Positions 2,754 through 2,822 of a stretch of DNA of 64,000 nt are shown here, piece after piece; positions within the stretch are counted from its first letter, which is position 1, and every line of letters begins with the position of its first letter. A program made the translations under genes and the position numbers. The notes beneath the pieces were generated by a model. That model saw only the letters and a list, made by a program, of their open reading frames with translations, was not told the DNA's origin and ran no database searches. Origin of the DNA: Escherichia phage VpaE1_ev108. The stretch lies in sequence record LR597658. One strand, 5' to 3'.

Positions 2754-2822
2754 AATTTAGGAGAGAAGCGATTGCTCACCGATTTGTAAGGTGCAAGTCC
2801 TTAGCCTGAATAGAAATTAAAT

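Follow-up and report, generated by a model that had tools for sequence, protein, structure and literature searches.

What occupies the spacer between the asparagine and tyrosine transfer RNA (tRNA) genes of a Felix O1-like phage, and is it the debris of a lost tRNA or something that the phage maintains? The question is raised by a 64,000-nt stretch of Escherichia phage VpaE1_ev108 (LR597658), referred to as a whole as the window. Its tRNA region is that of the Felix O1-like phages (Ounavirinae, Felixounavirus), 99.7% identical by blastn to Salmonella phages ST11 and FM4b, and ARAGORN finds 26 tRNA genes in it, all on the + strand, at 2263-7237. In the 69-nt spacer between tRNA-Asn and tRNA-Tyr (2754-2822), an initial annotation had noticed a hairpin shaped like a T arm and taken it for a degenerate fragment, possibly a tRNA remnant. 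Our comparative analysis leads us to a different reading, to which we give a probability of about one half: positions 2755-2813 would be a 57-nt optional, tRNA-shaped RNA module, built like the acceptor stem and T arm of a tRNA and carried as a cassette in the tRNA operon.

The hairpin itself is real, and a chance origin is unlikely. Its letters are as first reported, aagg (2788-2791), tgcaagt (2792-2798) and cctt (2799-2802), and T2787-A2803 lengthens the stem to 5 bp. The G for T noted at the second position of the loop is indeed the sole difference between TGCAAGT and the canonical T-loop TTCRANY. Outside the tRNAs, stems of at least 5 bp with a TNCRANY loop occur 6 times on both strands of the 64 kb (~0.003 per 69 nt), and only two of them are on the + strand, this one (2787-2803) and a canonical one at 3202, both within the tRNA array. 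As the loop pattern was loosened after the case had been seen, this rarity estimate is post hoc, and conservation in relatives is the stronger argument. It was also rightly remarked that a full tRNA cannot fit here: a tRNA has 48 nt ahead of its T arm, whereas only 33 nt (2754-2786) separate the end of tRNA-Asn from the stem of the hairpin.

We aligned the Asn-Tyr junction of GenBank phages (about 20, from Felixounavirus, Mooglevirus and Suspvirus), 27 IMG/VR loci and 7 metagenome contigs. The junction has exactly two states, with 12-15 nt (empty) or 73-75 nt (filled) between the alignment anchors. The empty state is a short generic spacer, CCAAATTTAAATG, and the filled state is that spacer interrupted by one discrete block, the module. 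Filled arrays, with a spacer of about 70 nt, and empty ones, with about 10 nt, are found roughly 1:1; in GenBank, 106 of the about 191-203 records holding the Asn-Tyr region have the module, and when it was compared by blastn with 50,697 phage records, only Ounavirinae matched. Both states exist inside Felixounavirus and inside Mooglevirus, and in neighbour-joining trees of the flanking 1.5 kb, or of the Tyr-Asp segment, alleles of the two kinds are mixed: L028 and L030, which group with the window, are empty, and so is L047, with which the filled L046 groups. The block has thus often been gained, lost or exchanged relative to point substitution. Since about half of the relatives do without it, the module is dispensable, as far as these alignments tell, and any function would be accessory.

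Where it is present, the module changes little. The three genera yield 15 distinct versions (alignment A2), and their few changes are concentrated at 2769-2772, at position 3 of the loop (C to T, found in two of the genera) and at G2804, which is unpaired. Between the window and Suspvirus or Mooglevirus the module is 93-97% identical, compared with a median of 91-95.5% for orthologous tRNAs, and ordinary spacer stretches (2455-2495, 3290-3400) are unalignable in the same alignment. More distant arrays were reached through the Ro60-like protein encoded upstream (described below), which retrieved twelve syntenic contigs at 50-63% protein identity. Two of them contain clear homologues, L079 (13399-13467) and L081 (12924-13001). 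These copies sit at another place in the array, with tRNA-Leu(taa) or a tRNA-like element on one side and tRNA-Arg(acg) on the other; in sister contigs that spacer has 6-9 nt. Each copy begins one nt after a CCA. Independent evidence of homology comes from blastn (E 0.015 for L079 against the window element; E 9e-10 for L081 against L079). A covariance model of the module, R1, detects it only once in the window and in none of the ten other syntenic distant relatives, and blastn of the L079 region against GenBank phages brought no further members.

Two blocks, 5' ATTYRGG(G)AGA and 3' ACCGNNTTGTRAGGTGNAAGTCCTYNNCCTGART, are conserved in all three lineages. What separates them varies in length, from 12 nt in the window to 21 or 34 nt in L079 and L081. 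Over the 34-nt 3' block, identity to L079 and L081 is 74-76%, and the median of 23-24 orthologous tRNAs is 70-73%. Tested for the relaxed constraint of a pseudogene, the module thus has an identity at least equal to the tRNA median at both levels of divergence. By this measure the module is conserved at the level of functional tRNAs, maintained rather than decaying. Its ancestor was probably a tRNA. As a separate observation, the L079 copy is directly preceded by a tRNA-like sequence of ~105 nt (13291-13397) that ends ...GAGGGTTTGAATCCTTCGTTAGCCACACCA and receives no ARAGORN call.

The module can be drawn as three helices (Table 1). Among the close variants no pair of this model is broken except the terminal A2755-U2811 of P1, in one sequence, and over the alignment that includes the distant copies 97.9% of the cells are paired. 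Adding those copies brings one compensatory P3 pair (A2788-U2802 to G-C in L079 and L081), and P1 has three one-sided, wobble-compatible changes across lineages (A-U to G-U, U-G to C-G, U-A to U-G). The P1 changes keep pairing only in the + strand RNA, which suggests selection on the transcript rather than on the DNA. Natural changes in P2 fall in its loop (G2770T, G2770A, and an insertion together with U2772A) or keep the pair (C2769T, giving U-G); in L079 and L081 the region is replaced by 21-34 nt with one or two hairpins. The loop of P3 has G at position 2 in every copy, including the two at another array position, so the base that had been taken for a sign of degeneration is an invariant feature of the element; position 3 is C, U or A. 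T-loop motifs of non-tRNA RNAs reportedly follow roughly U-(G/U)-N-R-A, a pattern that UGNAA fits. The module always begins 1-2 nt past the CCA of the preceding tRNA, and it is single-copy in the window and in every genome examined. The minimum free energy (MFE) fold of the L081 copy includes the T-like hairpin and has a several-armed, cloverleaf-like shape.

Table 1. Features of the Asn-Tyr spacer and its surroundings (window coordinates)
Feature	Position	Strand	Basis and remarks
Whole conserved tRNA-like module, present/absent unit among relatives	2755-2813	+	Alignments of relatives; covariance model R1, 87 bits; single copy
P1, 5' strand ATTTAGG; acceptor-type closing helix, 7 bp with 2805-2811	2755-2761	+	In every low-energy fold
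Purine-rich single-stranded AGAGA, conserved	2762-2766	+	GAGAG or GAGAA in distant copies; alignments A2 and A6
P2, mini-hairpin AGC-GATT-GCT, variable arm	2767-2776	+	Pairs 2767-2769/2774-2776; natural variants
Conserved linker CACCGATTTG	2777-2786	+	ACCG..TTG invariant across all three lineages
P3, T-arm-like hairpin TAAGG / TGCAAGT / CCTTA	2787-2803	+	Stem 2787-2791/2799-2803, invariant in 15 close variants
P1, 3' strand CCTGAAT	2805-2811	+	Folds and pairing comparison
Bracketing direct repeat, left copy AAATTTA	2753-2759	.	Alignments with relatives
Bracketing direct repeat, right copy AAATTA	2814-2819	.	Alignments with relatives
tRNA-Asn (GTT), upstream neighbour	2677-2753	+	ARAGORN; Rfam tRNA 48 bits; encoded CCA ends at 2753, 1 nt before the module
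tRNA-Tyr (GTA), downstream neighbour	2823-2910	+	ARAGORN; begins 11 nt past P1; anticodon stem compensated between genera
Four Y-RNA-like units, unannotated	2429-2507, 2596-2666, 3052-3131, 3139-3275	+	5' CAGAAGACCNNTTNCAGCAA and 3' GGTCTGG

Several points weigh against a tRNA-shaped module. For the window sequence, the MFE structure (ViennaRNA) is a long imperfect hairpin of -16.1 kcal/mol, as against -10.0 kcal/mol for the fold with the T-like arm; the T-like pairs have an ensemble probability of about zero, and forcing them costs 6 kcal/mol. The covariation in P3 amounts to one compensatory event common to two related distant sequences, and a rival ACC/GGU pairing is just as invariant; the 15 close variants contain no double changes, so that covariation among them is uninformative. 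Unlike in a tRNA, 1-2 unpaired nt part P1 from P3; the first base is A and not G, no CCA follows P1, and the L081 loop is 8 nt long. Alignment A6, which includes the distant copies, had its sequences cut at the start of P1 to anchor it. Model R1 scores 87 bits on the window copy and 52 bits (E ~1e-12) on L079 and L081, scores that for the latter are partly by construction because both rows belonged to its seed alignment, and the E-values are rough owing to a short calibration. Finally, the module is missing from 10 of the 12 distant relatives as well as from about half of the close ones. The comparative support for the P3 fold is, on these alignments, modest.

The folding energies point to another possibility, namely that the long hairpin is the actual structure, a processing site for RNase III or RNase E or a 3' stabiliser, with the likeness to a T arm coincidental. 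Its stability is exceptional (z = -2.64; none of 200 shuffles equals it) and its closing helix is common to all models. Natural variants, however, break its middle helix (2770-2773/2796-2799) at two of the four pairs without compensation (G2770T in Sf14, G2770A in L036, U2772A in Suspvirus), and in L079 and L081 the 5' partner is swapped for 21-34 unrelated nt while the 3' half is conserved. Moreover, the flanking tRNAs already provide processing sites. Since the variants break the middle helix and it is not conserved in the distant copies, we dropped the long hairpin as a real structure, and we consider this explanation unlikely.

The reading proposed initially, that a deletion left a T arm and a 3' acceptor strand which now drift neutrally, fares little differently, and we likewise hold it to be unlikely. 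Part of it stands: the hairpin has the shape of a T arm, and the whole element has a tRNA-like outline, with a 7-bp acceptor-type helix beside the T-like arm; the L081 copy even resembles a distorted cloverleaf. The gene turnover that the fragment was thought to mark does occur in these arrays, which lose and shuffle genes. The module itself is an insertion/deletion polymorphism, HNH endonuclease genes interrupt some arrays, and distant relatives have a different gene order (Met-Tyr-Asn-Asp). The contig L076 (Logan SRR12736308) carries, at ~9440-9531, a chimeric pseudo-tRNA that joins the 5' body of tRNA-Asn, at the T loop (GGTTCGA), to the 3' end of tRNA-Tyr; all that lay between the two T loops was deleted, a direct example of gene loss from an array. 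What does not stand is the decay. A comparison with related arrays, the check suggested at the outset, answers by halves: no relative has a tRNA at this position (none in ~60 related arrays, with no extra ARAGORN call), but the hairpin is strongly conserved. A remnant would not be expected to be as conserved as working tRNAs, to have an invariant loop "defect" and a compensated stem, or to be retained as the same module at another array position in distant phages. Neither the Rfam tRNA model nor ARAGORN in the three modes used recognises it. As a decaying sequence, the remnant is largely refuted.

With cmscan, the Rfam tRNA model RF00005 (threshold 29 bits) had no match at E<=10 in 2745-2830 (86 nt), and ARAGORN found no tRNA in the module in its standard, relaxed (-ps) or mitochondrial modes; as the latter two were blank, a hidden tRNA without a D arm was dropped. 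A 17-nt frame slid by hand along 2762-2786 met no anticodon arm of 5 bp and 7 nt. All 4227 models of Rfam 15, self-cleaving ribozymes included, gave zero matches at E<=10 on the window and L081 copies and only noise on that of L079, and the YrlA model RF02553 gave no match on the module at the same threshold. A consensus scan of 2100-3500 placed no intrinsic terminator or sigma-70 promoter in the spacer (2754-2822), be it on the + or the - strand. To look for a host origin, 185,579 bacterial and archaeal genomes were scanned for exact 24-mers, with 0 matches, and nothing convincing was found elsewhere in the window as a base-pairing target of the conserved single-stranded blocks.

The nearest likeness is to the acceptor/T-arm minihelix of tRNA (RF00005). 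Like it, the module sets a 7-bp closing helix beside a 4-5-bp stem with a 7-nt loop, in which position 1 is U, positions 4-5 are A and position 7 is a pyrimidine; it also lies in a tRNA operon, on the tRNA strand, and is spaced from its neighbours as a tRNA gene would be. Unlike a tRNA, it lacks both the D arm and the anticodon arm, 25 nt standing for the usual 41, has 1-2 unpaired nt between the helices and no CCA, and shows an invariant G in place of U/psi55 and a free position (C/U/A) in place of the invariant C56. T4 RNAC and RNAD (species 1 and 2 RNAs) are, in the same way, small non-tRNA RNAs inside a phage tRNA cluster, and they are co-transcribed with it (PMC3014915; PMC9697503). Compared by sequence only, they have no detectable similarity to the module, blastn of which hit only Ounavirinae in the phage records mentioned above. 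The two T4 RNAs are also about twice its length. The mascRNA/MEN-beta family (RF01684) and viral tRNA-like structures offer the parallel of a tRNA-shaped element used as processing signal or stable small RNA, but these mimic a complete cloverleaf or L-shape and have no Rfam match here, and a module lying between two real tRNAs is not needed as processing punctuation.

A wider family was sought with the 18-mer GTAAGGTGYAAGTCCTTA. It matches seven contigs outside Ounavirinae, three in coding-like sequence and four in tRNA-like contexts (L061, L064, L066 and L067, from unrelated phages in IMG/VR). As the latter four have nothing else in common and the number of matches is within a rough chance estimate, we rejected the family; the four are probably independent of the module, T arms that acquired the same point change on their own. 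In L064 (234-292; an unrelated phage from IMG/VR) the 18-mer GTAAGGTGCAAGTCCTTA is the T arm of a full cloverleaf ending in CCA, with the anticodon ACC, an aberrant D loop and no ARAGORN call, and L066 and L067 have a composite of T-arm fragments between tRNA-Met and tRNA-Glu.

A cassette may also be selfish. The clean filled and empty sites, the two insertion sites in two clades and the patchy distribution would suit a miniature cassette akin to a miniature inverted-repeat transposable element, inserting in generic CCAAATTT/AAATG spacers between tRNAs with no role for the phage. P1 would then be its terminal inverted repeat, and AAATT(T)A its bracketing direct repeats. Such an element would be expected in more than the single copy seen in every genome examined, and no transposase is linked to it. 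Further, the changes in P1 are of the wobble type, which preserves pairing in the + strand RNA and not in DNA, the internal single-stranded blocks are conserved, and homologous recombination between co-infecting phages with filled and empty alleles explains the patchiness equally well. We find this explanation improbable.

The setting of the array has to be considered before a last serious alternative. Directly upstream of the tRNAs, a 471-aa protein is encoded at 682-2097 (+), with the domains DUF2828 and DUF7788 and assigned to PHROG 850, "RNA-binding protein". It has a confident AlphaFold model (pLDDT 89), whose eleven best PDB matches are all Ro60/TROVE+vWA proteins (E 7e-8 to 2e-6, TM-scores up to 0.67); judged on this model, the protein is Ro60-like in fold. 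The resemblance to Ro60 has been reported for its orthologue Bas63 gp130, which counters the Ppl defence, and the authors of that work guessed that some of the downstream "tRNA genes" might be Y RNAs (bioRxiv 10.1101/2024.10.10.617714). We found four unannotated units that could answer this description (Table 1). Their 5' signature CAGAAGACCNNTTNCAGCAA has 4 matches in the window compared with 0.26 expected, none of them in the module. In each fold a 4-bp outer helix is followed by an AGA bulge and an inner helix of 7-8 bp, and the helices show compensatory differences, both among the four paralogues and in L076-L083, which are distant relatives. The units match no Rfam family and are candidate RNA partners of the Ro60-like protein.

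Within the unit at 3139-3275 lies a tRNA-like domain that is circularly permuted: an anticodon-like arm comes first, followed by a T arm, a closed acceptor hairpin and a D arm, which is the architecture of YrlA. Its T arm is perfect (GAAGG-TTCGATT-CCTTC, 3197-3213), its acceptor hairpin is ACTCGGC/GTCGAGT, and compensatory changes affect 14 of its 33 pairs (RNAalifold, six sequences). RF02553 gives no match here either, and the tRNA model gives a partial one of 22 bits. In L077 and L080 the loop of the acceptor hairpin of this unit contains CCA. On the - strand, a 76-aa open reading frame (ORF; 3139-3369) overlaps the unit and is annotated as a hypothetical protein in relatives (Felix O1 ORF94; FM4b CDS_0050), and the small annotated Felix O1 ORF91, ORF92 and ORF95-99 overlap tRNA genes; all of these are probably spurious gene calls.

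Could the module be a fifth, minimal RNA partner of the Ro60-like protein? Like YrlA-type Y RNAs, it is a non-coding RNA whose arms mimic those of tRNA, and a Ro60-type gene lies on its strand well within ~4 kb (the gene ends 658 nt upstream, +). The Ro60 fold of the upstream protein and of Bas63 gp130, the four units in neighbouring spacers, one with its permuted tRNA-like domain, and the fact that every module carrier found encodes the protein all speak for such a role, though the last point is in part circular, the protein itself having served to retrieve the distant relatives. In structure there are several differences. The module shows no circular permutation and lacks a D arm, and its ends form no Ro-binding stem; P1 is unbulged and without the motif GNCGAAN0-1G, and both the signature of the phage's own units (CAGAAGACC..TTACAGCAA and GGTCTGG) and their bulged, two-part closing stem are missing. 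The Rfam YrlA model does not match it, the YrlA-like RNA proper of the window being the separate unit 3139-3275, which RF02553 misses too, and most Ro60-encoding relatives have no module. Homology to the four units was considered and rejected, the likeness being a vague AGAAG..CG..TT..GC seen by eye; lacking the unit signature, the module is not filed with them. A part in the Ro60 system is doubtful, about as improbable as a selfish element.

Very improbable, and rejected, is a five-codon minigene (GGAGAG Shine-Dalgarno, TTG CTC ACC GAT TTG TAA) or a DNA site CGATT-N6-CGATT. In their favour, the Shine-Dalgarno spacing is good, the start codon is ATG in Suspvirus, and L036 turns both CGATT copies into CAATT; against them, L036 converts Asp to Asn in the putative peptide, and neither frame nor repeat is found in the L079 and L081 homologues.

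Returning to the tRNA-shaped module, one may ask how it would be made. It would be transcribed within an Asn-Tyr-Asp precursor; the only good promoter matches in 2100-3500 are at 2116 and 2207, upstream of tRNA-Pro. P1 and P3 would together mimic the acceptor/T-arm half of a tRNA and present it to RNase P, an enzyme that recognises the acceptor and T stem-loop and cleaves non-tRNA mimics with a 7-bp acceptor stem (PMC4919913); a 7-bp acceptor-like stem likewise makes the YrlA of M. smegmatis an RNase P substrate (Chen et al. 2014, PMC4201824). Compared with the ~12 stacked bp of such a substrate, the module offers 7 + 4-5 bp with 1-2 unpaired nt between. Cleavage at 2754/2755, the 5' edge of P1, would leave tRNA-Asn with a 1-nt trailer, a second cut at 2822/2823 would form the 5' end of tRNA-Tyr, and 3' exonucleases trimming back to P1 would release a stable RNA of ~57-60 nt. 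By analogy with these substrates, the module is probably excised by RNase P as a co-transcribed small RNA. A role in trans, as a mimic of the tRNA acceptor/elbow domain, is speculative for this RNA. One might imagine a cassette moving between spacers whose product is a decoy or ligand for a host factor or defence system that recognises tRNAs by their acceptor/T-arm half, or else an RNA partner of the Ro60-like protein, an accessory of anti-defence or RNA metabolism, and we would give this proposal a small chance.

Phage tRNA arrays are usually annotated as tRNAs with junk spacers, and they are now studied as counter-measures against tRNA-targeting host nucleases. Our data suggest that they also hold conserved, optional tRNA-shaped RNAs which tRNA finders and Rfam models miss. 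The module is a new tRNA-like RNA motif of narrow distribution, a modest addition to known biology. If it is a processed small RNA, it would be a candidate accessory factor that can be tested cheaply: nature provides near-isogenic phages with and without it. VpaE1 and JK55 are natural non-carriers, and the carriers include Felix O1 and the genetically tractable Bas63 (JohannRWettstein). The neighbouring Ro60-like anti-defence gene and the four unannotated Y-RNA-like units raise the stakes somewhat, and this adjoining context is a more promising lead than the module itself.

Some further features of the array deserve mention. In many GenBank records the downstream neighbour tRNA-Tyr carries the label pseudo or "tRNA-OTHER", and ARAGORN misses it in Mooglevirus and Suspvirus loci. 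Its anticodon stem differs between genera by compensatory changes (GGGGA/TCCCT and GGTGA/TCACT), on which ground it is probably functional. T4-like phages have a tRNA-Tyr 82-87% identical to it, the match including 9 nt upstream in some. After tRNA-Asp comes a conserved GC-rich hairpin, GAGAGGGCTATTTAGCCCCTC (2994-3030, +), ahead of which L029 and L048 have a 26-nt insertion (TTATAATAAGTATTTCAAAATGATG), another insertion/deletion polymorphism of a spacer. The array gaps 3597-3902 and 4468-4567 (+) gave weak Rfam scores (permuted tmRNA, 29 bits, E 0.004; tmRNA, 16 bits; MIR473-like, 33 bits, E 4e-4), and the larger gaps may hold further structured RNAs. Lastly, a conserved element of ~200 nt, absent from the window, is present in L077 (~9580-9790), L078 (~10985-11210), L079 (~9590-9760), L081 and L083. 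It reads …TTTTAAGAGAGCTTTAGNGGT…GCGGGTGTAGTT…GGTTCGA…CTAAAGGTAGC…AACACGAGGCGAC…GCGCCTACTCTTAA and surrounds a tRNA-like core that ARAGORN reports as "tRNA-???", giving it an anticodon of 2 or 4 nt; the element may represent an interrupted tRNA or a further tRNA-like RNA.

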